A stretch of DNA of 64,000 bases, from assembly GCA_039818205.1 (NCBI GenBank), contig JBCBUK010000005.1, forward strand, positions 128,001 through 192,000, read 5' to 3'. Below the pieces are notes generated by a model that worked only from the letters and a program-made list of their open reading frames with translations, was not told the DNA's origin and ran no database searches. Each line of letters opens with the position of its first letter. Positions within the stretch are counted from its first letter, which is position 1. Both the position numbers and the translations under genes were made by a program. This DNA comes from Verrucomicrobiota bacterium (GTDB lineage Bacteria > Verrucomicrobiota > Verrucomicrobiia > Opitutales > Cerasicoccaceae). Positions 39,133 through 59,538 of this stretch are shown here, piece after piece.

Positions 39133-40662
39133 CTAGCTGTCGGACGATTCTTCGGTCGATTCGGGGGAAATATTGGAAAGTGGATCAACAAGGCCAAGAA
39201 TTTCGCAATCCTTGAGAGCCAACTGCACTTTCAACATCGAGTCAACGGACATCTCACTATCAAAGAGACGTAAGGTTCTGAGCGACCGCAGATCCGACAG
39301 CGGCTCCACCGCACTGTCACCGATCGCTGTGCCATGAAGGTTCAACGAACGCAGTTTCTTCAAGGAACTCAACGCAACAAGGTCTTCCGAGGTCACATTG
39401 GTCTCGTTCAGATTCAGGTGTGATAGGCGTGGAAATTTCGCTATCTCGTTGATCGACCCCGATTCAAGTTCCCGCCTCCACAGATCAATCGACATCACGT
39501 AGTCTGCGACCGGCTCGAGATCCTTCAAAGCCTGCGCTGGAATGGCCACATCTGCATTTCGCGTTACCACGTAGAGCCCCGCGTTGATATCTTGCGACAA
39601 CGGAATCAAATCAATGCCATACTCATGCTTGAGGCCGCGCGCAACTGACAAGAAAGTATCCGTGGCCAAGGGCGCAATCTCCTCCGGCTCATCACCCACC
39701 AAACGAGAAATGATGACTTCGATATGCTCCGGGTAAGACTCCTCGCGAAGCCCATCTATTGATTGTGTCTCGGATGCCCCACCCTCGATCCACCAGTGGA
39801 TCAATGCAATCTCGTCGCCAGTCATCGCAGGCTTTTCTTTCGGCGGCATTAGCTGATCGTCCGTTCGGGGCAAGGTGATGCGGTTAAAGATTTCACTCTT
39901 ATCCAAGAGTCCCGGCACAATTCCCGGAATCTTACTTTTCCCGCCCGCCAGCATGAGATCAAAAAGATCCATTCGCAGCTGACCTTTTTGCTTCAGCTCG
40001 CTGTGGCACTCGTAGCAGTGTTGTTCAAAAATGGGCTCGATCACCGCGTGAAACACGGGTGATTGGTAGGTTACGACAATCGGCACAACTTCGGGCACAC
40101 CGATTAAGCTTCGAATTGGTTTCGGAGCCTTGGCGTAAAGATAGTCCTCACCGTGAATCAACGACGCGCCATGATGGCTTCCGATCGTCAGCGCACCAAT
40201 GCTCACAAACAAAACGCTAAGGTAAGCGCCATGGACAAATCGGTTATGCAAGTTCAAGTTGAGCTCCCGCAGGCTCAGCGCAAAAATCATCAATACCGTC
40301 GTAATGATGCCTGCCCACATGTGATCGTTGATAAGCTTGCCCGTGGCACCCTCACCCGCTGCGAGCAGAAAACCAAGCACACAAGCAAGCGCGGCAAAAA
40401 GAACCGCCAGGCCCAGCAGAACTGGCACGGCCTGCTTGAGATAGCTCATCGATTTGAAGGAGCCTAGAATCTCCAACAAGGGAATCATCAACAGCAACGC
40501 GATCGGAAAGTGCAGCGCCAGAATATGAAACCGCCCAAGCGCAATGACTGAGTCTGAGCCGCCCTCACCGTTTAAAGGAAAGAAGATCGGCATCGAAATC
40601 AGCAAGGCCGACAGCAACACGCCACACAGAACAACCAACTTTGATCGAAGGGTAACTTCCAC
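39133..40662 (-). CDS. Membrane protein: DUF2231-like domain + planctomycete-type cytochrome c + LRRs (paralog of 25945-27351)
   Basis: GRFHILALHFPI, SHHGASLIHG, CYECH...MPP, LSHLNLNETNVT, LRSLNLHGTAIGD. Confidence 0.8.
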   Translation of the reverse strand: MEVTLRSKLVVLCGVLLSALLISMPIFFPLNGEGGSDSVIALGRFHILALHFPIALLLMIPLLEILGSFKSMSYLKQAVPVLLGLAVLFAALACVLGFLLAAGEGATGKLINDHMWAGIITTVLMIFALSLRELNLNLHNRFVHGAYLSVLFVSIGALTIGSHHGASLIHGEDYLYAKAPKPIRSLIGVPEVVPIVVTYQSPVFHAVIEPIFEQHCYECHSELKQKGQLRMDLFDLMLAGGKSKIPGIVPGLLDKSEIFNRITLPRTDDQLMPPKEKPAMTGDEIALIHWWIEGGASETQSIDGLREESYPEHIEVIISRLVGDEPEEIAPLATDTFLSVARGLKHEYGIDLIPLSQDINAGLYVVTRNADVAIPAQALKDLEPVADYVMSIDLWRRELESGSINEIAKFPRLSHLNLNETNVTSEDLVALSSLKKLRSLNLHGTAIGDSAVEPLSDLRSLRTLRLFDSEMSVDSMLKVQLALKDCEILGLVDPLSNISPESTEESSDS

Positions 40663-40675
40663 GAAATATCCTTAA

Positions 40676-42145
40676 TTATGCGTTTAGGAGGCCTTTTACC
40701 ACATGGGCTTCCTCGACCCCGGTCAGGCGTTGATCGAGACCTTGGTGCTTCACGGTGAAACGATTGTGATCAATCCCCAGTTGATGAAGTATGGTCGCGT
40801 TCAGGTCACGAATATGAACCGGGTCCTTCGTAATGTTGTAGCCAAAGTCATCGGTCTCGCCATAGGTCATCCCCGGCTTCACGCCACCACCAGCCATCCA
40901 CATGGTAAAGCAACGTGGGTGGTGGTCGCGGCCATAGTTGGTATTCGTCAGCTTCCCTTGACAGTAAATGGTTCGACCAAACTCACCTCCCCAAACGACT
41001 AAGGTGTCTTCCAAGAGCCCGCGCTGCTTGAGGTCGTTGATCAATGCATAGCTTGCTTGGTCAACGTCGCGGCATTGGTTCGGCAAATCACCAGTAACGT
41101 TGTGATGCTGGTCCCATCCGCGGTGGAAGATCTGAGTAAAGCGGACACCGCGCTCGGCCAAGCGCCGCGCGAGCAAGCAATTGTAGGCGAAGGTTCCTGG
41201 CTTCTTTACATCGGGTCCATAGAGTTCCAAGGTCGACTCCGACTCACCCGAGACATCGGTCAACTCCGGCACAGAGCTTTGCATCCGAAAAGCCATCTCG
41301 TATTGGGCAATTCGTGCATGGATCTCCGGATCCCCGATGTCTTCATAATGCATGTGGTTTATGTCTTCGAGTCCATCGAGCATGATCTTGCGGGCATGCG
41401 TGCCCACTCCATCGGGATTGCTCAAATATAGGACCGGATCACCCATCGATTGAAACGCAACGCCCTGGTGCTCCGAGGGCAGGAAACCACTACCCCATAG
41501 ACGCGAGAACAAGGCCTGCGCATCTTTACGTCCCGTCCAACTCGAATTCAGGACCACGAAGCTGGGTAAGTTCTCATTCTCGGTTCCAAGCCCATAACTG
41601 ACCCAAGCGCCCAGGCTCGGAAGCCCGGGTGTTTGCCGACCCGTTTGAATATAAGTGATCGCTGGGTCGTGGTTAATGGCTTCCGTCCACATTGACTTCA
41701 CAAAGGTCAGGTCATCAACCATCTTGGCGGTATGCGGCAACAACTCACTTACCCAAGCCCCCGACTGGCCATGCTGCTTGAAGTCATACATCGTGTGCGC
41801 AATCGGAAAACGATCCTGCCCAGAGGTCATCCCCGTAAGGCGTTGCCCATTCCGAATCTCTTCGGGTAGATCCTTGTCGTGCCACAAACGCATGTAGGGT
41901 TTGTAGTCAAACATGTCATGCTGCGATGGCGCTCCTGACATGAACAGGTAGATCACGCGCTTTGCCTTAGGAGCGAAGTGCGATGCTCCCAGCGCTCCGC
42001 GTCCACCCGCCAGATTGTCAACGGCCCCCATCAGGTCTTTCCCCAAAAGCGATGCCAAGGCAATACTACCCAATCCCTTACCCATACGAGTAAAGAACTG
42101 CCGACGGGTTTCCAGCTTGATGTATTCTTCGATTGGATAGCTCAT
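40676..42145 (-). CDS. DUF1501 domain protein with Tat-like leader
   Basis: [53 protein letters not shown]. Confidence 0.9.
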
Positions 42146-42158
42146 GGTTTCAATAATT

Positions 42159-45100
42159 TTAGTTTTTCGTAATAAACGAATCCAGGTTCATGATCTGGTT
42201 GGCAACGATGGTCCAAGCCGCCAACTCGGCCGGATCAACACCACCATCGGCTGGAGTGTTGCCCACCTGGATTAGCTTCTTCGCCGCTTCCTGATCTTCG
42301 ATATAGATCGGCAACACACTCTGATAGGTATTCTTCAAAACATCGACAACTGCCTCCTCGGGTTCATAGCCCATGGCGACTTCATAAAGCATGGTAAACT
42401 TGTCGGGTTGGCCACTGGTCAGGACAAACTCTGCGAGGTTTCGCGCCGCCTCAACATACTGTGGATCATTCATCAACACAAGCGCCTGCAGCGGCGTATT
42501 GGTGCGTTCCCGGCGCACTGAGCACGTCTCCCGCGAAGGCGCATCAAAGACAACCATCGACGGTGGCGGTGCCGTTCGCTTCCAGAACGTATAAAGCGAC
42601 CGACGGTAGAGGCTTTCACCATCATCCACCGAGTAATTGGCGGTGTTACTATTGGTATAACCAACCGCATTCCAAATGCCCATCGGCTGGTAGGGCTTAA
42701 CTGGTGGGCCACCGATGTCATCCACCAACAACTGGCCAACCTGCAGCGCTTGATCTCGAATAACTTCGGCATCTAACCGGAATCGAGGACCCCGTGCCAG
42801 CAAGCGATTTTCGGGATCCGCTTCGAGTTTCTCCGGCGTTATCGCCGAGGACTGACGATAGGTCGACGACATGAGCATCAACTTATACATATGCTTAATA
42901 TCCCAGTCGCTTTCGATAAACTCTGCCGCCAACCAATCCAACAACTCGAGATGGCTAGGCGGCTCGCCTTGGCTACCAAAATCCTCCGACGTTTTTACAA
43001 TGCCGGTTCCAAAGAGCTCCTGCCAAAAGCGATTTACCGTGACCCGAGCCGGCAGCGGATTCTTCGGGTCGACCAACCAGTTGGCCAGGGAAAGACGATT
43101 GGCAACTTCGCCCTCCGGCAGGTTCAACAGAGCCTCAGGCACATCGGCCAAGACTTCGTCACCCGGCTGATCATAGAGTCCACGATTGAGAATGCGCGCC
43201 TTCGGAACGGAATCTTTCTTCTCCTTCATCACCAAGGTGATGTTCGCCCGGGCTTTCATATCCTGCATCTCTTGGCGGGCCACGCGCAGCGCATTGAGCT
43301 TCTCGATAGCAGCATCGTCGATGGCGGCCAACTCGGTCTCGCGGTCAGCAATTGCGATCTCGGTTGACGGAAAGGTGCGGGACAGGACGATTTGCTCCGG
43401 CCGCGACAAGATATGGTCGAACAAACGCACATCACGAATCGCCATCGTCGGTGCATCATCAGCAATTTTATCGTTCGGATTCGGAGATCCAATCATCAGC
43501 GGTTGGTCAACCGATATGTTCATCGTTTTGAAGAACATTCGGAGTCCTCCGCCCTTCAAGGCAGTTGATTTTTCGTTGATGGATCCGGAAACCACACTGC
43601 CAACATTCACGATGCCATCTACCTTCGGATCATCACCTGAAACGGTTAATAAGACATGGTTCCAAGCACCGGGTTTCAGCTTCTCGCGGGTCGTGAGGTT
43701 CAACTGATGGCTCCATACTGGCTTTCCATCGCCCTTGATTGAAAGGGTAACTTCAGATGCGCTGGTCGTGCGTACGGACCAACCTTGACCAGTCTCTGGG
43801 TCAAATTTTCCGAACAACGAATACTCGGGCAGCTTGGCTCCTTCATCCAATTCGGGATGATAAACCCAAAAACTTACCGTGAAGGGTTTGTTAACCGCGA
43901 GCTGTCCATAGTCCCCCAGCTCAACTGACGTGTCTTTCGCAATGGTGATCGCACCTAACCCGGCTGTCTCTTCAATCGCAGCCTCGAAGATCTCCGGTTC
44001 GGCGGCCGCCGAACCGCTAACCACAATACCTTCCTCAGTCGCATCGACGCGGACCAAAAGGTCGTCGCTAGCTAACCAGTGGTTCTCGGATTCTATGGGT
44101 AGCGACGGTCCAACGTATTCCTTCAATGCTTTCTCCAGTTTCCACATTTGCCCCTCGAGAACCTTCTTTCGCAGAAGCGCGTCCTCTTCGTAAACACGGA
44201 TCGACGGCGGCGTATCCAAAACGTTCCGGTCCATCGGAGCCTGGGTAGTGTTGCGGAAAAAAGCCGTCATCTGATAGAAATCCTTCTGAGACAAGGGATC
44301 AAACTTGTGATCATGGCAGGACGCGCAGCTCATCGTTAATCCAAGCCACACAGTCGACGTCGTTTCGACACGATCCAAGGCGTAGATCGCACGGTATTCA
44401 TCGCCAATCGCCCCACCCTCGCTCGTTGTTGGATTACAACGATTGAATCCTGTTGCGATGAGCTGCGATTGCGATGGCTCCGGCAGCAGGTCGCCCGCAA
44501 TTTGCTCTACGGTAAATTGATCAAAGGGCATGTTTGCGTTGAAGGCGTCGACCACCCAATCCCGATAGGGCCAGATACTTCGATAATTATCGAGATGCAG
44601 ACCGTGAGTGTCACTATAGCGCGCAGCATCCAGCCAGTAGCGCGCACGGTGTTCACCATACTGGGACGAGGCCAGGAATTGATCAACCATCTGCTCGTAG
44701 GCATTCGGTGACTCATCGTTGACGAAGGAATCAATTTCTTGCTCAGTCGGCGGCAAGCCACGTAGATCAAAGCTCACCCGGCGAATCAGGGTTCGGCGAT
44801 CGGCCTCCTTGGCGGGCTGAAGACCCGCCTGGTCAAGGCGGCGCACAATGAACGCGTCGATCGGATTGGCCACGAACGAATCGTCCGAAACCTGCGGCAC
44901 CTCCGGCCGTTTAATGTCAGTGAAGGACCAGTGATCCTCCCAAGGCGCACCCATCGCAATCCATTGCTTAAGCAGCCGGATGTCTTCCTGCTTCAAGTGC
45001 TTATGCGAGGTCGGCGGTGGCATAATCTCATCTTGTTCCTTGGTGATGATTCGCTTGTAGAGCTCGCTGTTCTTCGGATCTCCTGGGATAACCGCACGGC

Positions 45101-45761
45101 GCCCATCTCCCAAATCGGCCAACATACCGTCGTGGGTATCCAGTCTCAGATCAGCAGCCCGCGTAGCCTTATCGGGACCGTGGCAATGGAAGCAATTGTC
45201 GGATAGGATCGGACGGATATCGCGGTTGAACCGGATGGTCGAATCTTTGTGAGGAACGGAGGTCGCTACCGGGCGATCAAGCGACCCAGAATCTGGTAGT
45301 GAGTTCACCGACTTCATGTACTCTTCGATGGGATTTCTATCTTGAACCTGTTGGTCGAACAGATTTCCGTTGCTCACATAAACAGGCGCTGGTTCTTCCT
45401 CGTTAAGGATCAGGAAAAGCCCCCCCAGCAGCAAAACGAAGCTCGCGACGGAGGCCACCACCCAGCCAACCCAGGCGACAGGACGACGGCTACTATTGCC
45501 CCCTGTCGCGGCCGCATTTTCCGCGTCATCCTCAAACATCGAGACGACTTTCTCACCCAAATCGGCTTCGGCAATGGTTTGCAGGAGATCGGTCTCCTCA
45601 AGCAACATTGCGTGGATCTGGCACTGTTTGATGTAGAGGCGCCGGGCCTCGGTCGAGCTCTGCAGAATGCAATTGAACTCATTGGCTTCTGCCTTGTTCA
45701 ATCCGTCCGAAAACTGTTTGGAGATCAGAATCTCGAGTCGTTTCTTGATGGCTTCATTCAT
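42159..45761 (-). CDS. Fusion: anti-sigma-like N-terminus + TM + PSCyt1 cytochrome c + DUF1549 + LamG-like + DUF1553
   Basis: [62 protein letters not shown]...WNHV (LamG-like), [23 protein letters not shown]. Confidence 0.88.
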
Positions 45762-45773
45762 GGTTCGGATTCG

Positions 45774-46319
45774 TTAAACTTTCTTGTGGTCGACCGTTAT
45801 GCGCTCGATGCAGCCCATTAGTTGCTGACGCAGCCGATAGAGGACCTGCGCCAAAGCGTTGGCATTCGTATTTCGCTCTTTAGCTATCTGCTCGAGTGGC
45901 AGTCCTTCAAAGTATCGCTGAGATACCAGTTGTTGATTGTGTTTACCCAGCTGTTCGAGGCAGTGACGCAAGGCGTGTTTGCGAGCGGCATATTGCTCGC
46001 CCTCTCCCTCTGACTCCTCCGACAACTGCTCGATCAATGAATCGTCAAACACCAGCTTGTCACGCTTGGAGGTCGCCCGATGCCGCAGCACTTCGAAGTA
46101 AGCGATTCGACAGGCCCAAGCCAAGAAATTGGTCCCCAGAACGAAGTCGTCCCCCTTCTTGCAGATTACCAAATTGGCCTCCTGGAGGACATCGTTGGTT
46201 ACGTTGGGGTCTGCGGTCAGTGACAAAATATAGCCACGGAGGGTGCCTTGGTGTTGGGCCAACAGTTGATAGATCTCAGGCTGCTGGTCAGGCGTCATGT
46301 TGGAGTCATTCGCAAGCAT
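45774..46319 (-). CDS. ECF RNA polymerase sigma factor, Rhodopirellula/Verrucomicrobium type
   Basis: DVLQEANLVI...GTNFLAWACRIAYFEV...LVFDD; ALRHCLEQL...RYF...LYRLRQQLMGCI. Start may be 46298. Confidence 0.9.
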   Translation of the reverse strand: MLANDSNMTPDQQPEIYQLLAQHQGTLRGYILSLTADPNVTNDVLQEANLVICKKGDDFVLGTNFLAWACRIAYFEVLRHRATSKRDKLVFDDSLIEQLSEESEGEGEQYAARKHALRHCLEQLGKHNQQLVSQRYFEGLPLEQIAKERNTNANALAQVLYRLRQQLMGCIERITVDHKKV

Positions 46320-46368: not shown

Positions 46369-46683
46369 CAATTTGTTCCATATTTCCTTCAATTCCGAAG
46401 CTAAATCCTATCCATCTAATTGATAAACATCAACTTAAATAGAATTTGCAAATTGTGAAGATTTCCCATCTCGCCGTGCGCAAAAGGTAACCAAATGATC
46501 ACTTAACTATCCATTTGAATGTCCGATCAACGAGATGATCATCGTTTTGGGCCGAAGATTGAATTGTCTCTGGCTGGAGACTTTTTGTGACGACAAAGCT
46601 CCAATCCGGGCGCAGATTTTTCAATATCGGGCTTGAAGACGCCCCCTAAAAACGGCTTCCTAGACCGCTTTGATTTTTCATTC

Positions 46684-48603
46684 ATGTTTCGATCGTTCAC
46701 TGGCACCATATCCCAAGGAAGACTCTCCGATAAGCTGAAGCGTTGGGCATCGCTATTCGGCAGCGAGGAATCTGTGGAGATCCAGGATCACGAGGAAATC
46801 GAAACCTTTGAGCCCGAAGATCCGCCTCAGGCAACCGAGTCGCACAGTGCGATCGAAGAACTGGACGAGGTGGTCGCCGAAGAAATACCAGCGGAGGAAC
46901 ACGTCGAAGACCGTGAAGCGATCTGGCTGGCTGAATGGGAACGACTTGACGATTGGACTGCTGAGCTCGACGAGCGACTAGCGGCGCGAGACTTGAGGAA
47001 ACGGGACCACGCGAAACGAATGGCCGAATGCCACGCACGCATCGAAACTGTCCTCGCCGCGCCAGAAGTCGAAGAGGTCGCCCAGGAAGCAGAAAATAGC
47101 GTCGAGGAGGCAACGCCCGTTGAGCCACCGGCAGCAAAGCCACCTCCCGAACCCGTCGAGGGATATAAATCAACCGACCTCGACGGTTACCAACCACCCG
47201 TTCTCGATTTTCTGGCCGAGCCCGTCCATACGGATGGCCCCGTCGTCGACGACGCCGAATTGGTCCAGCAACGCGAAAGCCTACAAACGACTTTTGACAA
47301 TTTTGCAGTGGATGCCCTGGTCTGCGACGCCACCGTGGGCCCCCGGGTCACTCAGTATCGCGTGAAGCCTGGCTACGGAGTTCGGGTGGAAACGATCGCC
47401 GGGCTCGATAACAACATTGCCCTCGCGCTCAAGGTTAACGCTGTCCGCATCCAGGCCCCCATTCCGGGCGAACCCTATGTCGGTATCGAAGCGCCCAATC
47501 CGAAGAGCCGGACAATTATGCTCAAGGAGGCGTTGTTAAACCAGGCTTGGAGAAGTAATGAGTGCCAGCTTCCAATGGTCCTGGGGATGGATATTGCGGG
47601 GCGTATTCAGCTGCTCGATCTGGCCAAGGCGCCCCACCTACTCATCGCTGGTTCGACGGGTAGCGGTAAATCCGTTTGCATAAATAACCTGATCCTTTCG
47701 CTTGTTTACCATTTCAAGCCTGGTGAGCTCGAGCTCGTGCTCGTCGATCCGAAGCGGGTTGAGTTTGCGATGTATAAAGACCTGCCCCACCTCATCCACC
47801 CGGTGGTCGACGATGCCAAGCAGGCTTGCCAAGCGCTCAAGTGGTTGGTCCGGGAAATGGAAAGCCGCTACGAACGAATGGCCTCACGGCGCGTCCGCAA
47901 CATCGCCGGCTACAATGAAAAAGCGACGAAAGAAGGCTTTGATCCCATGCCCTACATTGTCCTGGTGATTGACGAGATGGCCGACTTGATGATGACCGCC
48001 AAAGATGATGTGGAAACGCCAATCGCCCGCCTAGCCCAGATGTCTCGTGCGGTGGGCATTCACACCGTCCTCGCAACGCAGCGCCCGAGCGTCAACGTGA
48101 TCACCGGAGTCATCAAAGCCAATTTTCCCACGCGCATTGCGTTCAAAGTATCCTCGCAGATCGATAGCCGCACGATCCTCGACGGCAAGGGCGCAGAGAC
48201 TCTCCAGGGCAAGGGCGACATGCTCTACACGCCTCCGGGCCAAGCACGACTCAAGCGCTTGCAAAGCCCGTTTGTTGATGACGACGAAATCTTACGGGTT
48301 ACCGACCACCTCCGCGAACAAGCTCCACCACGCTACCGCGTCGAGCTGGTCGACGAAGACGCACCCGCCGGCGAGCAGGGTGAGCTCTTTGAAGAAGGCG
48401 CCGACAAGCTCCTCATTGATGCCTTGGCGGTCGTTGCGACAACGGGAAAAGCCAGTACCAGTTTTATCCAGCGAAAGCTCAAAATCGGCTACAATCGGGC
48501 CGCAACGCTTGTCGAGGAACTCGAAGTTCGTGGACACATCGGCCCGCAAGTGGGCACGGCACCGCGGGAGGTATTTGTCACCCCGGCGGACCTGCCTCGC
48601 TAA
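46684..48603 (+). CDS. ftsK: FtsK/SpoIIIE-family DNA translocase lacking the N-terminal membrane domain
   Basis: RIQAPIPG..VGIE.PN, Walker A GSTGSGKS, DPKRVE, Walker B VIDEMADL, LATQRPS, gamma domain ASTSFIQRKLKIGYNRAA. The N-terminal ~170 aa are acidic with no TM helix. Confidence 0.9.
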   Translation: MFRSFTGTISQGRLSDKLKRWASLFGSEESVEIQDHEEIETFEPEDPPQATESHSAIEELDEVVAEEIPAEEHVEDREAIWLAEWERLDDWTAELDERLAARDLRKRDHAKRMAECHARIETVLAAPEVEEVAQEAENSVEEATPVEPPAAKPPPEPVEGYKSTDLDGYQPPVLDFLAEPVHTDGPVVDDAELVQQRESLQTTFDNFAVDALVCDATVGPRVTQYRVKPGYGVRVETIAGLDNNIALALKVNAVRIQAPIPGEPYVGIEAPNPKSRTIMLKEALLNQAWRSNECQLPMVLGMDIAGRIQLLDLAKAPHLLIAGSTGSGKSVCINNLILSLVYHFKPGELELVLVDPKRVEFAMYKDLPHLIHPVVDDAKQACQALKWLVREMESRYERMASRRVRNIAGYNEKATKEGFDPMPYIVLVIDEMADLMMTAKDDVETPIARLAQMSRAVGIHTVLATQRPSVNVITGVIKANFPTRIAFKVSSQIDSRTILDGKGAETLQGKGDMLYTPPGQARLKRLQSPFVDDDEILRVTDHLREQAPPRYRVELVDEDAPAGEQGELFEEGADKLLIDALAVVATTGKASTSFIQRKLKIGYNRAATLVEELEVRGHIGPQVGTAPREVFVTPADLPR

Positions 48604-48621
48604 TCGCCGCAACTGACCTAG

Positions 48622-50010
48622 ATGGACGTTCCGCAGAACATTTCAGAGCTGATTGCGCTCGTTGAAGAACATGGTGCCGAGAAGGTGGCCAAGCGCTTCC
48701 GCAAGCCACCGATTCCGAGTCAGCTCCTAATTGCCGTCAGTCATGAGACGCCACCCGAATCCGTTTGGGTCTTTCTAGCTCAATACGTGTTGACGCCCAG
48801 TAGCCTGCTGGAGGAGCTCGCCCAAGAGAACTCGAAATTCCCAGGTCAGGTTCTCATTCCGCTTTCCCAGAATCCACGGACTCCGCCAACGTCGCTATCC
48901 AAACTGATGGCGCACCCCGAGCGCTCCGTGCGCGCTGCCGTTGCCGCAAATCCCAATCTGCCCGCTCGAGACATCAATGACCTCCTCGAAAGCAAGGATA
49001 CGGAAGTCTGGCAGTCACTGGCGACAAACCCAGCATTGAAGTTTAAGGTGCAAGCCCAGCTGGCTGCCCAAGGCGATGCCGCGACTCGCCTGGCCTTGGT
49101 CAAAAACAAGTCCCTGCATCCGGATCTATGGATTGCGCTCTCGGCCGACCCGAGCCCGATCGTGCGGTTTACGTTGGCAACCGCCAGCAATGCGCCCGAT
49201 GACCTCCTACCCTTTTGGGCGGACAGCGATCGTGAAGAGATTCAGCTGGCACTCTTAACCCGCTCCTCACTGCCTCCCAAGATTCTCAAATCGTTACTGC
49301 TCTCACCGCATGCCAGCGTTAGACAAGGCGTCCGTGAGCAATTGGAGTTAGATGAGGTCGATCTGCTTTATTTGAGCCGCACCAATGCCATTGAGGAACG
49401 TCAATATGTCGCCGCTCTTCCCGGCGTAAGTGGCAACCTACAACATCAACTCGCGCAGGATGACGACCTCGCGGTTCGCGCCGCACTGGCCACCAACGAA
49501 TCCATTTGGCCAGAAGTCGCGGAGTTCCTGGTGACCGGTGAAGACGAAGACGCTTGCTTGGCGATGCTCGATAACCCCGAGATGCCGGAATCACTCTACG
49601 TCGAGCTTGCCTGGTTGAACAAACCCCGCTTGGTCGCCGCGCTCGCCAGCAGCGACAACACTCCCGAGGAAGTCCTGCACTATCTGGTGAACGATCGACT
49701 TTCAGCCGAGGCAATCTTCCACCTTGCTGCTTGCCAACGAGCCGCACCTTGGCTTCGCGCCGATCTAGCAAGCGCACTTTCCAAGCACACTTCTCCATCG
49801 CTGCGCAATCTGGCGGCAAGCGCCACCGGACTACCTCAGGCGGATCGCAATCGCCTGCGCGACGACCACATTCCCCGCGTGCGCCAAGCCGCTTACGAGG
49901 TGCTCCCCGAACCAATCGAGATCAAGAGCAGTACGAAGGCTGCGATCGAAAAATGCCTCCAGGAACTCGAACAACTTTTTCAACGTGGAACCCACGACGA
50001 AACAAATTAA
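48622..50010 (+). CDS. Variant leucine-rich (LRV)/HEAT-like repeat protein
   Basis: Repeated ~24-aa units of the form D..VR.A.A.NP..P...L..L along most of 462 aa. Confidence 0.75.
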   Translation: MDVPQNISELIALVEEHGAEKVAKRFRKPPIPSQLLIAVSHETPPESVWVFLAQYVLTPSSLLEELAQENSKFPGQVLIPLSQNPRTPPTSLSKLMAHPERSVRAAVAANPNLPARDINDLLESKDTEVWQSLATNPALKFKVQAQLAAQGDAATRLALVKNKSLHPDLWIALSADPSPIVRFTLATASNAPDDLLPFWADSDREEIQLALLTRSSLPPKILKSLLLSPHASVRQGVREQLELDEVDLLYLSRTNAIEERQYVAALPGVSGNLQHQLAQDDDLAVRAALATNESIWPEVAEFLVTGEDEDACLAMLDNPEMPESLYVELAWLNKPRLVAALASSDNTPEEVLHYLVNDRLSAEAIFHLAACQRAAPWLRADLASALSKHTSPSLRNLAASATGLPQADRNRLRDDHIPRVRQAAYEVLPEPIEIKSSTKAAIEKCLQELEQLFQRGTHDETN

Positions 50011-50027
50011 CGAACAACTAAATCACA

Positions 50028-50405
50028 ATGGCAAAGAAACCTAATCAACCAATGACCCTTAGCCGTAACGACATCATCCTAGGCGCCGAAGCCGATGTCA
50101 TCCGTGCGGCATTCGAGGCGCGCGAGCAGATTGATACCTTGCTCGCCGAACGCGCAGAAGCTTATCGGAAGATCGCTGAGCTTGAATCCCAAGTGGATGG
50201 TATTCTGGGCGAAGACGATGAATTCCCATTCCCAGAACCGGAAGAGCCCGTAGCGCAGTTTCCGGTGGCCAAGAAGAAGGTCGCCAAGAAGAAGGTCGCG
50301 AAACCAGCAGTTGAGGACACCGACACTGTAGACGGTGCCGATGCCGACACGGGTGATGACGCAGCCGATTCGGACGCTTCTGACGACGACACCACCGAAT
50401 CCTAG
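50028..50405 (+). CDS. Hypothetical protein: coiled coil, AKKKV repeats, Asp-rich tail
   Basis: 125 aa, ATG start after an A-rich leader, 17 nt after the previous gene. Confidence 0.75.
   Translation: MAKKPNQPMTLSRNDIILGAEADVIRAAFEAREQIDTLLAERAEAYRKIAELESQVDGILGEDDEFPFPEPEEPVAQFPVAKKKVAKKKVAKPAVEDTDTVDGADADTGDDAADSDASDDDTTES
50268..50297 (+). repeat. 15-bp tandem duplication encoding AKKKV twice
   Basis: GCCAAGAAGAAGGTC occurs twice in direct succession. Confidence 0.85.
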
Positions 50406-50445
50406 TCTCTCCTGACCCGGTCGATGGATCGGGTACCGGCTTGGT

Positions 50446-50859
50446 ATGGCATTAACAGCGCAACAGCGTATTCGCTTACAGGAACTCCTGCTTAAACGGG
50501 AGGCTCTCTACGCGCGCGTGTATCAAACCGAGCAGAAAATCCATCAGGTCTTTGGCGAGACTTATCCGCTTACTCCGCCACCGATCGATCTCCCCAGCGC
50601 CAACCGGCAAAAGACAAAACCCAAGCGCGCCGCAAAGAAGAAGTCGGCGCCCCCACGCATCCGCAACTTGATCAAAGGCGAAACCGCCTATCGCGTCCGC
50701 TATGGTGGAGCGACGGATGCTACGGAAGAAACCCACACCGATCGCAAGAGTATTGAAGTGCTCTTGCGGATTCCCGCGGTCAGATCGACAATCGCTTCGA
50801 TCGAAACCATCGACTCTGGTGGTAAGTTGCGCGAATTCATTTTCCCGCCAACGGACTAG
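50446..50859 (+). CDS. Hypothetical protein, N-terminal domain paralogous to 50028-50405
   Basis: 137 aa; LLLKREALYARVYQTEQKIHQVFGETYP followed by a Lys-rich linker and a small C-terminal domain. Confidence 0.72.
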   Translation: MALTAQQRIRLQELLLKREALYARVYQTEQKIHQVFGETYPLTPPPIDLPSANRQKTKPKRAAKKKSAPPRIRNLIKGETAYRVRYGGATDATEETHTDRKSIEVLLRIPAVRSTIASIETIDSGGKLREFIFPPTD

Positions 50860-52975: not shown

Positions 52976-55657
52976 ATGAATAGCCGCCTGACCGCTACTC
53001 TCGTTCTACTCCTGTCGCTATGTGCGGTCCAGCCCCTGTTGGCCCGCCCGGTAGCCGTTATTCTGGTTGGCCTCGCGGGGGATGCCGAAGTCTGGCGCCA
53101 GCAGTTTCAAGAGCGGGATGCCTGGGTTCAAATATTCGAGGAAGCCGGTGTTACCGATGCGGACATCCACTTGATCGAAAGTGAGCAGGTGGTTGGTAGT
53201 AGCAATGACGGGTCCAGCCAGGCAAAAGCGGATTTCGATGCGCTCATGGCCGAATTCGCGGAGACGCTGACACCAGAGGATGATTTAATCTTCGTCCTTG
53301 CTGGCCAGGGTTCGACCCGCGGCGACCGCTACAACTTCCAGGTCCGCGGTCCACGCATCAAAGGAGATCAGATTCGATCAGCCGTTGAGTCCGTTGATGT
53401 TCAATCTGCATGGGTATTCATCACCGGACCGGGAGGCAAGGGTCTGGCCGACCAACTTGCCCTGCCGAACGTCATGGTATACTCGGCCACGGCTCATGCG
53501 GACGAGATCAACCGAACCATATTTGGAACAGCTCTAACCGAATCGATCAAGCAGGCACCTGATCAATCGCTCCGAGACATTCTCGAAAGCACGGAGGAAA
53601 AGATCGAGGAGTATTACGAGATGCGATCGCTCGCACGACTGGAACACGCCACACTACAAGTCGGCACCGCCTCGCCGATGGAGGCACCATTTGAGTCCGA
53701 TGTAACCATTATCGACCAATGGATCGATGCCACTTCGCTCGGTAGCCTGTTGCCTGTCCCGGGTTCACCCGCAGCCTTAGCGGCCGCCGAAAAGGATGCT
53801 GCTCGACCGATTGCGAACTTAAGTTTAGACGAACTCAAACGCCTGCCCGAAGAATGGCAGGTATTGGCGGGTGACTACGAACAGACACCCTACATCAAGC
53901 TGCGCGATGCGACCGAAGAGGAACTTAAGCTCTTCGAGAATTTGCCGCCACCAGAGTTTTACGAAGGGCATTCTGGGGTGATCCTTTTGCGGGAGGAATC
54001 CAACCTGATCGAGGCCAAATATGCTTCGAAACAGACCGAACACTATCGCGTTCTGGTCGAAGACATGGGGATCCGGCGTTTGCTCGATCGCATGGTTCCG
54101 GCACCCGGCGGCGGCTACGTCAATCTGTTGGCTCTGAAGACCGTGCATCCAGATGGGCTGGTCCTCGAGCTAGATATCCAAGGGTGGATGCAATTAGCGA
54201 TGGGTGGCTCAAGTGACCTGATTTTCTTTCCTCCCGGCGTCGCCCCTGGTGTGATTGTCGAGTATGCCTACGAGATCAATGCCCCGCCCTCTCCAATTCT
54301 GGCCTATTGTGAATCCGTCGAAATTGCGCGCAGTGTACCAACCGCCACATTCCGCTATCGTCTGGAGAAACCCAAGGAGCAGTTTCTTGCCGCCGAACTT
54401 GAGACTTCGATTCCACCGAGCCAGCAAGGCGAGTCCGACGAAGCCTATACCCAGGTAAACCATTGGGAATGGGAACAAGTTCCGGCTCGAGTCTTCGAAC
54501 CCGACACCCCCTATTGGGAGAATGACTTCGATCGGCTTTTTCTGACGAGCTACCAAAACTGGGATGAGTTTGCCGACTGGTACCGCAGCATTTTCCGTGG
54601 CGCTGATGTGTCCAGCGAACAGGTTGTCGAAGTCGCCAACCGGCTAACGGAAGCGCTCGAGGAAGAGGATGAGAAAATCCGAGCGGCGTACGACTACGTT
54701 TCGAAGCTCCGTTATGTTGCCATTGAAACCGGAGTGAACGCGTGGCGACCGCGCAACGCCGATACGGTGCTCAATCGACAATTTGGTGACTGCAAAGATA
54801 AAGCAAACCTCCTGATCGCTCTCCTGCGAGAAATGGATATCCCAGCAAACTTTGTTTTGGTGTCCCGCGGGCAACCGATGTCAACGGCGGTTCCTAGCTA
54901 CCACTTCAATCATGCCATCGCAGCCGTTCCTCGGAAAGACGGTTGGCTCTGGTTGGACGCCACCGATGAATCTTGCCCTTACGGAATGATGCCACCAGGG
55001 GACCCGCATCAAATGGGTTTTATTTTCAAGGAAGACACACACGAGTTCGCCCTGATTCCCGCCTATAATAAGGACTTCATCCGCGCCGACGCTGTCACCG
55101 TTGAGATGGAGCATTCCGTATCGAGCAAGCCCTCGAGACTAACAATCACTCCCGGACTAGTGCGTGAATATTATTGGAGGTCACTCGCCCGCGGCCAAGG
55201 TCCCATCGCGGTTGAAAATGCGATCGCCACTGAGCTTGAACAGCTATGGCCCTCCGCCCAGATCCTAGATGTCCAGTTGGACATGCCCGAATCGCTCAGT
55301 GACGCACCGGTATTGAAAGCGGATTTCGTAGCCAGCATGCCTCCGCCCCTCCTCGACTTCCCGGTTCCTCCTGGCGCGAGACACCGGAACGAAGCCTGGT
55401 TGCCGTACAACGGGTATCCCGTACGCTTTACCCAAACCGTCACAATCCCTCTAGAAGAAAATGAACCGCTCCAGGAGTGGAAATCGCCGGAAGGATTCTC
55501 AGTCCGCGACACCGTTTCCAATGGTATTCTCACCCGGACCAGCTCGCTCGATTTGAGCGATACGGCAATCCCGGCCGAGGACCTCACCGTTTTTCGCGCT
55601 GCCTACTACGAATGGTATCGCCGCACTACCGCCCCCACGAAGCACTACTTACAATAA
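52976..55657 (+). CDS. Secreted protein: caspase-like alpha/beta domain + DUF3857-like + transglutaminase-like domain
   Basis: Signal peptide; PGVIVEYAY (DUF3857-like); catalytic triad motifs GDCKDKA, FNHAI, WLDAT. Confidence 0.78.
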   Translation: MNSRLTATLVLLLSLCAVQPLLARPVAVILVGLAGDAEVWRQQFQERDAWVQIFEEAGVTDADIHLIESEQVVGSSNDGSSQAKADFDALMAEFAETLTPEDDLIFVLAGQGSTRGDRYNFQVRGPRIKGDQIRSAVESVDVQSAWVFITGPGGKGLADQLALPNVMVYSATAHADEINRTIFGTALTESIKQAPDQSLRDILESTEEKIEEYYEMRSLARLEHATLQVGTASPMEAPFESDVTIIDQWIDATSLGSLLPVPGSPAALAAAEKDAARPIANLSLDELKRLPEEWQVLAGDYEQTPYIKLRDATEEELKLFENLPPPEFYEGHSGVILLREESNLIEAKYASKQTEHYRVLVEDMGIRRLLDRMVPAPGGGYVNLLALKTVHPDGLVLELDIQGWMQLAMGGSSDLIFFPPGVAPGVIVEYAYEINAPPSPILAYCESVEIARSVPTATFRYRLEKPKEQFLAAELETSIPPSQQGESDEAYTQVNHWEWEQVPARVFEPDTPYWENDFDRLFLTSYQNWDEFADWYRSIFRGADVSSEQVVEVANRLTEALEEEDEKIRAAYDYVSKLRYVAIETGVNAWRPRNADTVLNRQFGDCKDKANLLIALLREMDIPANFVLVSRGQPMSTAVPSYHFNHAIAAVPRKDGWLWLDATDESCPYGMMPPGDPHQMGFIFKEDTHEFALIPAYNKDFIRADAVTVEMEHSVSSKPSRLTITPGLVREYYWRSLARGQGPIAVENAIATELEQLWPSAQILDVQLDMPESLSDAPVLKADFVASMPPPLLDFPVPPGARHRNEAWLPYNGYPVRFTQTVTIPLEENEPLQEWKSPEGFSVRDTVSNGILTRTSSLDLSDTAIPAEDLTVFRAAYYEWYRRTTAPTKHYLQ

Positions 55658-55673
55658 ACCTGAACTGCATGGT

Positions 55674-56666
55674 ATGAGCAACGAAGACAACGTCCAAGAA
55701 ATCGAGAACGCACGTAAATTCCACGCGGCGCTCAAGGCTGAAACCTCCAAGATCATTGTCGGCCAGGAGACGATCATTGACTACCTTACCTACGCGCTGC
55801 TCTGCGGCGGACACGCCTTACTGGTCGGAGTACCGGGCCTGGCCAAGACTCTGCTGGTTCGAACGATTGCCGAGGCCACGCACCTGAAGTTTAAACGGAT
55901 TCAGTTCACACCTGATCTGATGCCAGCCGACATCACGGGAACCACGGTGCTTGAAGAAGACCAAGCCGGTCACCGCGCATTCGAGTTCATGCCTGGGCCC
56001 ATCTTTGCAAACATTATCCTAGCGGATGAGATCAACCGCACCCCACCGAAAACGCAGTCCGCTTTGCTAGAATCGATGCAGGAGCGCAGCGTCACCGCGG
56101 GTGGGGAAACACGACCGCTCGAACCACCGTTTTTTGTCCTAGCCACCCAAAATCCAATTGAGCAGGAGGGCACATATCCCCTCCCGGAAGCCCAGCTCGA
56201 TCGCTTCCTGTTTAATCTGGTCCTCACCTACCCACCAGAGGAGGAAGAGGTGGCCATCCTTCAGGCGACCACCGGCGCACCACCGGAACCGGTCGAACCG
56301 TTGGCCGATGGCGCCGCGATCATCCGGATGCAAAACGCTATTCGCCTTCTGACCTGCGCTGAGCCTGCCATGCGGTATGCGGTTCATCTGGTCTCGGCGA
56401 CCCGTCCAGAAAGCCCCCGCGCAACGGATCCGGTAAAACGCTACCTGAGGTGGGGCTCTGGACCTCGCGGCGCACAATTCCTGATCCTCGCCGCCAAGGC
56501 CCGAGCCGCCATCAGCGGTCGGTTCCACGTCGAGTTCGAAGATATCGTCGAAGTGGCAAAGCCAGTATTGCGTCACCGCTTGCTCCTCAACTATCATGCG
56601 GAAGCTGACAACGTGGATGCGGATCGAATCATCGATGATATTATCAAAGCCGTCGCCCGCCCTTAA
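55674..56666 (+). CDS. moxR: MoxR-family AAA+ ATPase
   Basis: GVPGLAKT, RIQFTPDLMPADI, LADEINRTPPKTQSALLE, ATQNPIEQEGTYPLPEAQLDRF. Confidence 0.96.
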   Translation: MSNEDNVQEIENARKFHAALKAETSKIIVGQETIIDYLTYALLCGGHALLVGVPGLAKTLLVRTIAEATHLKFKRIQFTPDLMPADITGTTVLEEDQAGHRAFEFMPGPIFANIILADEINRTPPKTQSALLESMQERSVTAGGETRPLEPPFFVLATQNPIEQEGTYPLPEAQLDRFLFNLVLTYPPEEEEVAILQATTGAPPEPVEPLADGAAIIRMQNAIRLLTCAEPAMRYAVHLVSATRPESPRATDPVKRYLRWGSGPRGAQFLILAAKARAAISGRFHVEFEDIVEVAKPVLRHRLLLNYHAEADNVDADRIIDDIIKAVARP

Positions 56667-56668
56667 AC

Positions 56669-57649
56669 ATGTCCTTTAAGACGCCCAGTAACCGACCTGG
56701 CCCACCGCCACTTCCGCGATCACGAAGTGGACCGCCGCCTCTTACGGTTGCTCGGCCGAAGGTTACCTGGGACCCAAAGCTTCTTGCACATTCACAGAAT
56801 CTGGAGTGGCTATCAAACTTGGTGATGGCGGGCTACAACCAGGGCTTACACCGAAGCCCATACCATGGCTTCAGCTCTGAGTTTTCGGAATTCCGCCCCT
56901 ATACCCAGGGAGATGATCTTCGTTTTCTGGACTGGCAAGTTTATGGCCGGCACAACCGACCCTTTATCCGGCGTTTCGAGGCGGAAACCAATCTGAATGC
57001 ATTAATCGTGGTTGATGTCAGCCGCTCGATGGACTACCACTCCAACCCCGACTTCCCAACCAAGTATCAATACGCCGCTCTGTTGGCCTCAGCTCTCATC
57101 CGCCTGTTCAACAGTCAAAATGACGCGGCGGGGTTGGCACTCATTCAGGATGAAGCCGTTGCCTCTTATTCAAGTCCAGCAAACACCGCAGCCAAGTTTA
57201 AGCATTGCCTTGCGTTAATGGAGAATGCCCAAGTAACCGGAGGGGGTGAAATCGCTCAACCGCTGCCCGGACTTGCCCGCCGATTAAAAGGGCGCGGGCA
57301 GATCATATTGATCAGCGACTTTCTTCACGAACTCGAGGGGCTCGAGAACGCCTTGAAATACATTGGTGCCCAACGCAACGAGATCAGCCTGCTCCAGGTT
57401 CTGGACCCAGAAGAAACGGAGTTTCGGTCAGCCCGCCAAGGTGTTTATGAAGACATGGAAACCGGCTTTCGCTTAACCGTGAATCCCGAATGGCTGAAGG
57501 CACGCTACCTGGAACGAGTTCGAGCCCATCAGCAAGAGCTGGAGGAAATCTGCAAGAGCCATCGCGGGCATTTCCATTTGATTTCCACTCAAGAAGCTCC
57601 CTTCGGAATCTTAGGTGAACTCACCGCCCGACGACAGCGTAAGCCATGA
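56669..57649 (+). CDS. DUF58 protein
   Basis: GLHRSPYHGFSSEFSEFRPYTQGDDLRFLDW, DVSRSM, ISDF. Confidence 0.93.
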   Translation: MSFKTPSNRPGPPPLPRSRSGPPPLTVARPKVTWDPKLLAHSQNLEWLSNLVMAGYNQGLHRSPYHGFSSEFSEFRPYTQGDDLRFLDWQVYGRHNRPFIRRFEAETNLNALIVVDVSRSMDYHSNPDFPTKYQYAALLASALIRLFNSQNDAAGLALIQDEAVASYSSPANTAAKFKHCLALMENAQVTGGGEIAQPLPGLARRLKGRGQIILISDFLHELEGLENALKYIGAQRNEISLLQVLDPEETEFRSARQGVYEDMETGFRLTVNPEWLKARYLERVRAHQQELEEICKSHRGHFHLISTQEAPFGILGELTARRQRKP

Positions 57650-59538
57650 ACCCATCCATCTTACAACCGTTGATGCTCTTGGGTGCTCTGGCGATCGCCA
57701 TACCAATCATCCTGCATCTCCTAAGCTTGCGGCCTCGTAAAAGTATCGAATTTCCGTCGCTGCGCTTCTTCATGGAGAAAGACATACCCGCGGACCGTTG
57801 GAGGAAGGTGAAGCGTTGGCTTGTGTTACTCTGCCGCTGTCTTGCGATCATCATCCTCGCATTGGTGTTCGCTCACCTTCTTTTTGAAAAGCCAAGTGAA
57901 TGGCGCGAGGCCGCCGTCATCGTGGTTGATCGATCGGCTTCGATGACGATGGGCGACACGCCAAATCGGACCGAAGATGCCTTTCGAGAAGCGCTCAATC
58001 AAATGGGACCGGGATCTCGGGTGGCCGTGATCGAGCTTGATGCCTCCCCGGAGATGCTCAGTGAGTTTGGTTCGGTTGAACAAGCGAGTTCAACTTCCAA
58101 CAAACTTGATCCAAACATTGAATCTGGCGACCCTCGGGCCGCAATTGATGCAGCCGCTGCACTCTTGGCGGGCGCCTCCGCCCAAACCAAACGTTTGACC
58201 ATCATCTCAGACTTTCGGGGGCCCCAATGGAGATCAATCCAATCGACTGATGAATCTATCGATGTCGAGTTCATCTCGGTCGCTGATGCAAATGCTGCCG
58301 AAAATCTATGGCTGGAAATCCCTCGGATCGAATCCACTGGCCAAAGCGATCAAGCCGTTCTTGCTGTCCGGGTACACAACGAGGACACCTCTTCTCGCGA
58401 AGCCGTGATTCACCTATCCGGAGACTCCTTTAATGATAGTGCACGCGACATCGTTCTACCGGGCCTATCATCTATTGAACTTCGCCTACCAGTTGAGCTA
58501 ACGCCGCCAACACCGGAGATCCATGGTGTCCTACGGCTCGATCCAGCGATTGAAGACTCATTCCTACTCGACAACGAACGTTACTTTGCCAAACAAAGCT
58601 CCATCGAACGCAAGGTCGCCCGCATTAGCGAGACGGCTTCGCCCAGCGACGTTTTTTGGCAAGCTGCTCTATACCCAACCTTTGATCGCAGCCGATCCAC
58701 GCAACAATGGTTAACCGGGATTGATGCCAAGCGGGCCTTGGTCAACGCCACCACAAACTTGGTCATTCTTGATCGTTCCACCCCGTTGAACGAGATCGAA
58801 TTGAAAGCGCTTGAAACCTATCTGGATCAAGGAGGCACGATCTTCTATGTCGTCGATAAGACCACTACTAAGCAGCCCTTCGACAAGATCATTGGGCTTA
58901 AATCCCTCAGCTCCCAATCCGCAACCAATAAGTTGCTCGCGCCACGACTCACCGGCTTTGATTTTGGACATCCGCTTCTCGGAATCTTTAACCGACCCGA
59001 CATGACGAGCCCCTTTGGAGTCAAAGTCTTCAACTGGGCCACTCTACAGAGCGACGCAATCAATCCTCTCATCCAATTGGAGAATGGAGACATCGCACTT
59101 GGTGAAATATCGATTGGCAACGGCAGAGTTTTCATCAGCACCTTTCCGTTCGAACGCGAATCAACCGATTGGCCTGCACGCGTCAGTTTTCTTCCCTTTG
59201 TTCAAGAACTACTCGCCCTGACCTCTGGCGTTGTGCAGACCGAAGCCCCGACTGAAACCGGGATGCGTCTCGAAAGCGGTGAGGTCGCTAGCCTACCCGG
59301 CATATACGAACAGCAAGGCAGCCGAACTATCGCGGTGAACTTGGCAGAGGAAGAATCCGATCTTCGCATCTGGGCGAGTGAACAGTTTCAAAGTGCTGAC
59401 GAAACAGATGCACTACAAGGACCTGAAGGAGGTAACAACCCACCAGAGCAACCCGTCGACCCAACGTCCTGGCTGCTTTTCCTGGCAGCCTGCTTTGGAG
59501 CATTCGAACTATTAATCGCTAACCGCACCTCGCTATGA
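57646..59538 (+). CDS. BatA-like N-terminal double-TM + vWA domain protein
   Basis: IPIILHLL...FPSLRF...LLCR; MIDAS DRSAS; IISDF; C-terminal AVNLAEEESDL + TM; ATGA overlap. Confidence 0.87.
   Translation: MNPSILQPLMLLGALAIAIPIILHLLSLRPRKSIEFPSLRFFMEKDIPADRWRKVKRWLVLLCRCLAIIILALVFAHLLFEKPSEWREAAVIVVDRSASMTMGDTPNRTEDAFREALNQMGPGSRVAVIELDASPEMLSEFGSVEQASSTSNKLDPNIESGDPRAAIDAAAALLAGASAQTKRLTIISDFRGPQWRSIQSTDESIDVEFISVADANAAENLWLEIPRIESTGQSDQAVLAVRVHNEDTSSREAVIHLSGDSFNDSARDIVLPGLSSIELRLPVELTPPTPEIHGVLRLDPAIEDSFLLDNERYFAKQSSIERKVARISETASPSDVFWQAALYPTFDRSRSTQQWLTGIDAKRALVNATTNLVILDRSTPLNEIELKALETYLDQGGTIFYVVDKTTTKQPFDKIIGLKSLSSQSATNKLLAPRLTGFDFGHPLLGIFNRPDMTSPFGVKVFNWATLQSDAINPLIQLENGDIALGEISIGNGRVFISTFPFERESTDWPARVSFLPFVQELLALTSGVVQTEAPTETGMRLESGEVASLPGIYEQQGSRTIAVNLAEEESDLRIWASEQFQSADETDALQGPEGGNNPPEQPVDPTSWLLFLAACFGAFELLIANRTSL

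Follow-up and report, generated by a model that had tools for sequence, protein, structure and literature searches.

The sequence considered here, referred to as the window, comprises 64,000 nucleotides of contig JBCBUK010000005.1 (positions 128,001 to 192,000, forward strand; assembly GCA_039818205.1) from a Verrucomicrobiota bacterium of the order Opitutales, family Cerasicoccaceae. It contains a four-gene locus encoding FtsK2, a DNA translocase of the FtsK/SpoIIIE type without a transmembrane (TM) segment, an LRV/HEAT-type solenoid (SOL), and two small proteins, SM1 and SM2. The features of the locus are collected in Table 1. As described in an earlier reading of the sequence alone (the original prediction), the four open reading frames (ORFs) lie on the same strand, separated by gaps of 18, 17, and 40 nt. 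Where individual items have to be distinguished below, G denotes genomes, L loci, C contigs, f families, and g genera.

Table 1. Features of the FtsK2 locus, in window coordinates
Feature	Position	Strand	Remarks
FtsK2 (TM-less FtsK/SpoIIIE translocase)	46684..48603	+	639 aa, ATG start; PF17854, PF01580, and PF09397 above Pfam cut-off
SOL (LRV/HEAT-type solenoid, predicted FtsK2 adaptor)	48622..50010	+	462 aa; groove residues 119-298; WADSD conserved at 199-203
SM1 (no named family)	50028..50405	+	125 aa; long helix 13-60, FPFPEP motif, disordered acidic tail
SM2 (SM1 paralogue)	50446..50859	+	137 aa; helix 5-36, Pro/Lys linker, beta-beta-alpha-beta-beta domain
FtsK2 N-terminal basic amphipathic helix, candidate membrane anchor	46720..46755	+	residues 13-24; moment 0.68, net +3
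FtsK2 long Trp/Arg helix, predicted SOL-binding segment	46912..47067	+	residues 77-128; complex score 0.70
FtsK2 gamma winged-helix domain	48400..48579	+	Thr608 (48505-48507) in place of E. coli KOPS-reading R1300
Promoter-like conserved element, CTTG(A/C)(A/G) + CGGCTT(T/C)CT, spacing fixed	46632..46661	+	upstream alignment

Results

The ATPase motifs of FtsK2 (Walker A, Walker B, Arg finger, and TQRP) are intact, and its FtsK alpha, ATPase, and gamma domains all score above the Pfam cut-offs. Judged from its sequence, FtsK2 is a full member of the FtsK/SpoIIIE DNA translocases, with the complete motor and gamma domain originally noted. The absence of a TM segment was also borne out: the best 19-residue Kyte–Doolittle mean in the N-terminal part is 0.38, compared with 2.79 in the genome's other FtsK, and the N-terminal maximum stays below 1.8 in all 53 FtsK2 proteins. 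That other FtsK (FtsK1) is the second, TM-bearing copy for which a search had been suggested. It lies on contig C19 and carries FtsK_4TM, and PF13491 matches this C19 gene only. By domain content, FtsK2 does not have the N-terminal multi-pass membrane domain (PF13491) of a divisome FtsK. The possibility that it is merely a truncated divisome FtsK is ruled out by the separate TM-bearing FtsK together with the N-terminal plan that its homologues share.

In most FtsK2 proteins, this plan consists of a short basic amphipathic helix, an acidic or Pro-rich linker, a long helix bearing W91 and R102, a second linker, and the motor. The N-terminus had been described as an acidic linker plus one Trp-rich helix; the Trp-rich helix is there, but the additional amphipathic helix had been missed. 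In the window's protein it covers residues 13–23 (shuffle p 0.055), and 33 of the 53 FtsK2 proteins combine a helical moment of at least 0.55 with a net positive charge. The helix is weak or missing in family f22 and in some others. By analogy with SftA of B. subtilis, FtsK2 may still touch the membrane through it. The term "membrane-anchorless" overlooks both this conserved helix and the one often found at the SOL C-terminus (26 of 61 genomes). Within the long helix, W91 is present in 34 and R102 in 37 of 39 FtsK2 proteins.

Relatives of FtsK2 start with MFRS or MFGS. The TTG at 46633, which would add 17 codons, falls inside the conserved upstream element; because of this and of the conserved start, the TTG was rejected and the ATG at 46684 is taken as the initiation codon. 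In the element itself, CTTG..CGGCTTTCT, all 10 aligned upstream regions of relatives share the CTTG without change. Strict matches number two in the genome and none in two shuffles, a genome-wide count from which no regulon could be defined. A sigma-70 scan returned sites at chance level only. The element may serve as a promoter.

The distribution of the genes argues that they belong together. Among 301 genomes of the order, the SM1 profile matched 30, of which G298 (E 4e-5) was dropped because it has no partner genes. The FtsK2 profile, with its threshold set between FtsK1 (at most 686 bits in the order) and FtsK2 (at least 839 bits), matched 29 genomes, identical to the 29 of SM1. It was built mostly from those genomes, and a very diverged FtsK2 elsewhere could escape it; G006, although absent from the profile, reached 866. 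The module is carried by roughly one in ten of the order's sampled genomes. Across the phylum, the SM2 profile matched 45 of 401 genomes, and SM2 clusters in the Atlas are commonest in Verrucomicrobiota and Lentisphaerota. The named SOL records at 61–63% identity are from Cerasicoccus species, and the carriers include the cultured genera Cerasicoccus, Ruficoccus, Coraliomargarita, Pelagicoccus, and Oleiharenicola.

We retrieved the locus from 61 other module-bearing genomes. The order FtsK2-SOL-SM1-SM2 is co-directional in 38 of them, once with an inserted gene, and FtsK2 is divergent in five. The trio SOL-SM1-SM2 stands alone at the locus in 15, with FtsK2 elsewhere in six and none in nine; in the remaining three, the locus is dispersed or truncated where a contig stops, and FtsK2 lies elsewhere in the genome. 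FtsK2 is thus present in 52 genomes, and the trio, unchanged in order in 58, is the invariant core. In G006, the genes are spread over three contigs and all four are still kept. Conservation of the four-gene order, which had been proposed as a check, is thus observed in 38 of the 61 genomes. The four genes very probably constitute one functional module.

An initial count gave 50 of 51 module genomes a pair of FtsKs, but this proved to be an overcount. Eight of the second matches are a degenerate FtsK-like motor fused to a C-terminal phosphoribosyl-ATP pyrophosphohydrolase (HisE), and the true count is 42 of 51. The 17 negative genomes in that comparison were hand-picked; the unbiased test is the FtsK2 profile run on the 301 genomes. 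The fusion occurs in eight of the nine trio-only genomes (genera g175 and g231; L155:5057-6859, L156:2524-4326, L157:5088-7145, and L158-L162), usually directly behind ftsK1. Walker B and Arg-finger motifs were not found in it, and seven of the eight were seen in sequence or Pfam. A third FtsK-like protein, of 751 aa, is encoded at L164:2767-5019 (G314); its long N-terminal domain looks nuclease-like by eye, and it has no gamma motif. In G045, a 123-aa gene that reads as GxxExxY-type (L021:7004-7375) lies between ftsK2 and the solenoid gene.

SOL gives matches to LRV, HEAT, and DUF2336, all below the curated cut-offs (DUF2336, 27.6 against 34.6; SpbR, 16.7 against 400). Among solved sequences, its family profile matched only the LRV protein 1LRV (E 5e-9), which has the same repeat type. 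To model the complex, SOL 1–455, SM1 1–82, SM2, and FtsK2 66–130 were co-folded, and only the FtsK2 helix was scored. The score was 0.70, whereas the best of three controls, including one with SOL replaced, reached 0.00; the runs share at least 95% of contacts, with a partner pLDDT (predicted local distance difference test) of at least 81. In the predicted pose, FtsK2 77–128 runs along SOL 119–298 and places R102, R105, and K106 at D201. Co-folding of the helix with each partner had been suggested; the four-chain model gives a predicted contact with SOL but no confident contact with SM1 or SM2. The model thus agrees with the idea that the solenoid is an FtsK adaptor, which it would be by binding the Trp helix, and we regard the FtsK2-solenoid contact as likely.

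The residues at this predicted interface follow the presence of FtsK2. The position of D203 is Asp in 45 of the 49 genomes with a long-helix FtsK2 and in one of the nine without FtsK2; for D201, the corresponding numbers are 35 of 49 and none of nine. Asp is kept in one of three further genomes, which have an unusual FtsK2 N-terminus and were treated separately. In the nine FtsK2-less genomes, SOL is also missing its last repeats and tail. A basic amphipathic helix at the SOL C-terminus (for example, LLKQLKRLF), which we take to resemble the MinD anchor, is found in 26 of 61 genomes and in none of the nine where FtsK2 is missing. It is present in most f22 genomes, whose FtsK2 lacks an amphipathic helix of its own.

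SM1 and SM2 are, by profile comparison, paralogues (hhalign 98.2%, E 3e-14, 51 columns), sharing a helix, a Gly, and an FPxP motif. Neither has a Pfam family, and for SM1 no family is common to more than 3 of 39 members. The SM1 search returned 91 cluster representatives, weak SM2 cross-matches among them. The model of SM1 consists of one 48-residue helix and a disordered acidic tail, with no folded C-terminal domain, and that of SM2 (pLDDT 79.5) shows a small beta-rich domain. Fold searches gave only generic matches for SM1 and no clear known fold for SM2 (best Z 4.6, generic matches only), which is not proof of a new fold in either case. Both proteins had been called Lys-rich and taken as DNA-binding partners. 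The first description is true of short patches, but each contains only 8% Lys and SM1 is acidic. With a pI (isoelectric point) of 4.2 and a net charge of −17, and with only one of 39 members net basic, SM1 is unlikely to bind DNA. SM2, which might bind DNA, has a pI of 10.1 and is net basic in 20 of 39. Nucleoid proteins of the H-NS/Lsr2 type combine an oligomerizing helix with a basic C-terminal DNA-binding domain of known fold; the modeled C-terminal part of SM1, an acidic protein, is not folded, and the SM2 domain has no clear fold match. SM1 and SM2 might form a hetero-coiled-coil scaffold. In G123 and G225, SM2 is reduced to the helix and linker (L075:2436-2621, 61 aa; L066:4995-5222, 75 aa).

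The gamma domain of FtsK2 differs at a residue implicated in the reading of KOPS (FtsK-orienting polar sequences). In E. coli FtsK, the KOPS residues in gamma are R1300, E1303, and E1306, according to PMC2680272, and they align with the R-x-x-E-x-x-E of the gamma helix. FtsK2 has Thr608 at the R1300 position and keeps the equivalents of E1303 and E1306. Within Opitutales, f74, and f58, the equivalent Arg is found in 2 of 39 FtsK2 but in 15 of 15 FtsK1 proteins. KOPS guidance of FtsK2 is probably weakened or changed; since both Glu are kept, its loss is not claimed.

The FtsK2 proteins of Opitutales, f74, and f58 make up a clade of 39 (starred in the tree) that mostly follows the families, with two exceptions: f33 falls inside f1, and G251 groups with f22. 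A 40-row tree (24 of 53 FtsK2 and 16 of 30 FtsK1) did not reject a single origin (approximately unbiased test, p-AU 0.52), which is no proof of one. We read this history as an old duplication followed by many losses. The module lies 6–70 kb from ftsK1 in G128:C5, G164:C23, G290:C1, and G149:C1, perhaps a trace of the original duplication.

On either side of 55 of the 63 fetched loci, we scanned the nearest ORF that reached 150 aa (107 proteins). These flanking genes are mostly metabolic or housekeeping and differ between genera. PADLOC matched 13 of them. Twelve seem to be look-alikes (RecQ, RecD2, ABC ATPases, TatD, and others), which leaves one PDC-S01 candidate. A search of phages, plasmids, and viral contigs with SM1 gave no match. 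The module is chromosomal, old, and outside defense islands. DNA repair and topology genes (RecD2, Fpg, RecQ, GyrA, TatD, and a RecN-like gene) flank it at L020, L066, L069, L074, and L113-L118. Irrespective of whether they carry the module, all five genomes examined for marker genes contain FtsZ, ScpB, and ComEC; SepF and MinE were found in none, the window's own 99.97% complete genome being included in the SepF search.

Discussion

We propose that FtsK2, docked on a dedicated LRV solenoid adaptor, serves the chromosome of the cell itself as an accessory pump similar to SftA; the odds of this reading being correct seem to us about even. It is suggested by the shared set of 29 genomes among 301, the retention of all four genes when they are dispersed, the complex score, the decay of the interface where FtsK2 is missing, the amphipathic helices, the housekeeping neighbors, and the gamma domain, which is retained as in chromosomal FtsK. 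In the proposed arrangement, an intact alpha-beta-gamma motor carries, in place of the membrane domain, a short amphipathic helix followed by an acidic linker and a helix of 50 residues. This long helix is predicted to lie along the SOL groove, with R102, R105, and K106 facing the WADSD loop. The amphipathic helices on FtsK2, on the SOL tail, or on both would tether the complex reversibly to the inner membrane. As a coiled-coil scaffold, the paralogues SM1 and SM2 would position SOL, a role like that of SepF and FtsA for SftA; the SepF route itself is unavailable here, because SepF was not found in the five genomes. Hexameric FtsK2 would move or clear chromosomal DNA, probably at division and with KOPS guidance weaker than or different from that of FtsK1, which would keep the divisome and dif jobs. 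The clearing role itself we regard as evenly balanced.

The closest architectural parallel is SftA. PMC9320952 describes membrane binding by its N-terminal amphipathic helix and binding of SepF by residues 30–75. Like FtsK2, SftA is, on that account, a second chromosomal FtsK paralogue without TM helices, beside a TM-bearing one, in which an amphipathic helix is followed by a recruiter-binding segment and an intact motor. In contrast, SftA depends for its recruitment on SepF and FtsA, which are general division proteins, whereas FtsK2 comes with a dedicated, co-inherited solenoid and two unnamed proteins, in genomes where no SepF was found (5 of 5). FtsK2 groups with the phylum's own FtsK1 copies, and the likeness to SftA is one of architecture, not established orthology. 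With E. coli divisome FtsK (PDB 2IUS; E 9e-114), FtsK2 shares the alpha, beta, and gamma domains and all ATPase motifs, but it has no FtsK_4TM, 37 of 39 proteins have another residue at the R1300 position, and the genome also encodes a canonical FtsK1. SspH, MADS, and TraB have the motor superfamily and an accessory distribution in common with FtsK2, which differs in having a canonical gamma and no effector, island, or mobile context (TraB score 53 against a cut-off of 800).

Several observations weigh against the proposed reading. About 90% of the order's genomes have no module, and the trio persists in nine genomes without FtsK2 and hence has a job of its own. A helix wrapped by a solenoid is a common shape in general. 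The calibration of the complex score, in which 116 of 157 solved pairs and 2 of 215 mismatched pairs attained the mark, applies only roughly, as our job had four chains and self-made alignments. The nine FtsK2-less genomes represent three genera of one family, so that the interface decay reflects few independent events and the statistics are weak. Concerning the membrane, 20 of the 53 FtsK2 proteins fall short of the amphipathic-helix thresholds, the tail helix of the window's SOL has an acidic net charge of −2, and the binding partner of an amphipathic helix may be a protein rather than a membrane. Concerning KOPS, FtsK2 retains the two Glu equivalents, and in f75, f83, and f84 the Arg is missing from FtsK1 and FtsK2 alike. 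Finally, none of FtsZ, SepF, MinE, ScpB, FliG, and ComEC tracks the module in five genomes.

It is also conceivable that the module, like Streptomyces TraB or Thermus TdtA, transfers or exports chromosomal DNA to neighboring cells or vesicles; the trio would then mark where the DNA leaves. The patchy, dispensable distribution would fit, the missing KOPS Arg would permit loading anywhere, and the few tree placements across families noted above could be read in the same way. However, no pore, relaxase, or integrase gene recurs among the 107 flanking genes, no TM segment was predicted in any of the four proteins, there is no plasmid or phage match and no plasmid or integrative-element location was found, and ComEC is indifferent to module status. 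We consider this reading improbable. A remodeler acting on the nucleoid at times of damage or stress, in which FtsK2, working away from the septum, strips proteins or reels in broken chromosomes while the cell undergoes repair or lies dormant, would agree with the missing TM anchor, the weakened KOPS helix, and the DNA-acting neighbors (RecD2, RecQ, Fpg, GyrA, and TatD, with MutS-, RecN-, and DinB-like ORFs read from sequence). Such neighbors account for only about 8 of 107, vary by lineage, and have no background count for comparison, and no match with fewer than two mismatches to the Verrucomicrobia LexA box, a motif that a literature search did not confirm, was found in 65 upstream regions. 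This role, too, appears unlikely.

The unchanged trio order in 58 of 61 genomes and its survival in nine without FtsK2 could mean that the trio is a membrane-bound positional scaffold with a role of its own, a polar or septal landmark like SpbR or PopZ, and that FtsK2 is one optional client. The basic helix, resembling that of MinD, at the tail of 26 of 61 solenoids and the weak DUF2336 and SpbR matches point in this direction. Those matches, though, are far below cut-off and reflect the repeats; the 301 genomes yielded no case of FtsK2 lacking the trio, and FtsK2 accompanies the trio in 52 of 61. We think this quite unlikely as a separate explanation, and it is partly compatible with the accessory pump. 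An anti-phage system, with the FtsK motor coupled to a solenoid sensor, seems very unlikely. The distribution is accessory, FtsK domains occur in SspH and MADS8, and one flanking gene matches PDC-S01. Against this, SOL, SM1, and SM2 have no PADLOC match, no nuclease or other effector domain is present, the other 12 PADLOC-matching neighbors read as housekeeping look-alikes by Pfam or annotation, and inheritance is mostly vertical and single-copy; a nuclease, Sir2, or modification partner in a defense-island context was not found. The original suggestion of a segregation, nucleoid-remodeling, or defense module therefore holds as regards a conserved module; its defense branch is disfavored, with no partner PADLOC match and no island or mobile context. 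A bolder reading is an ancient, undescribed Verrucomicrobiota DNA pump, in which an importin-like solenoid replaces the membrane domain and, with a two-protein coiled-coil scaffold, gives a KOPS-independent motor a site of its own, separate from the divisome, where it would move whole chromosomes or export them; we find this doubtful.

No description of the operon, of a dedicated solenoid partner, or of the SM1 and SM2 families was found in the literature, with subscription journals and supplements outside the scope of the search. Likewise, no publication was found on the binding of FtsK by an LRV protein, and none linking SpbR, which acts on centromere translocation (bioRxiv 10.1101/2020.06.12.148478), with DUF2336. 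Within the literature covered, the dedicated solenoid partner and the SM1 and SM2 families appear to be new, while the FtsK/SpoIIIE motor is known and, on paper, SftA-like. Few division genes are retained throughout the Planctomycetes-Verrucomicrobia-Chlamydiae (PVC) bacteria, and FtsK is among them (PMC12283558). The module bears on how FtsK is placed in these bacteria, as it supplies a second FtsK with its own predicted adaptor. The predicted interface can be mutated at the level of residues, and the module occurs in cultured genera. If the proposal is correct, it represents a new way of tethering an FtsK motor and a natural test of FtsK function with a changed KOPS helix.

Neighboring Genes in the Window

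The original prediction held that no nuclease, integrase, or transfer gene is adjacent, and this is true of the five neighboring genes scanned, which encode an ECF (extracytoplasmic function) sigma factor, a DUF1553 protein, a sulfatase, a transglutaminase-like protein, and MoxR. Positions 39133-46319, on the minus strand, hold a typical PVC cluster with the ECF sigma factor, a DUF1553/DUF1549 cytochrome protein, and two more large ORFs. At 52976-59538, a transglutaminase/DUF3857 protein and a MoxR ATPase are followed by genes that read, from sequence, as DUF58- and vWA-like.

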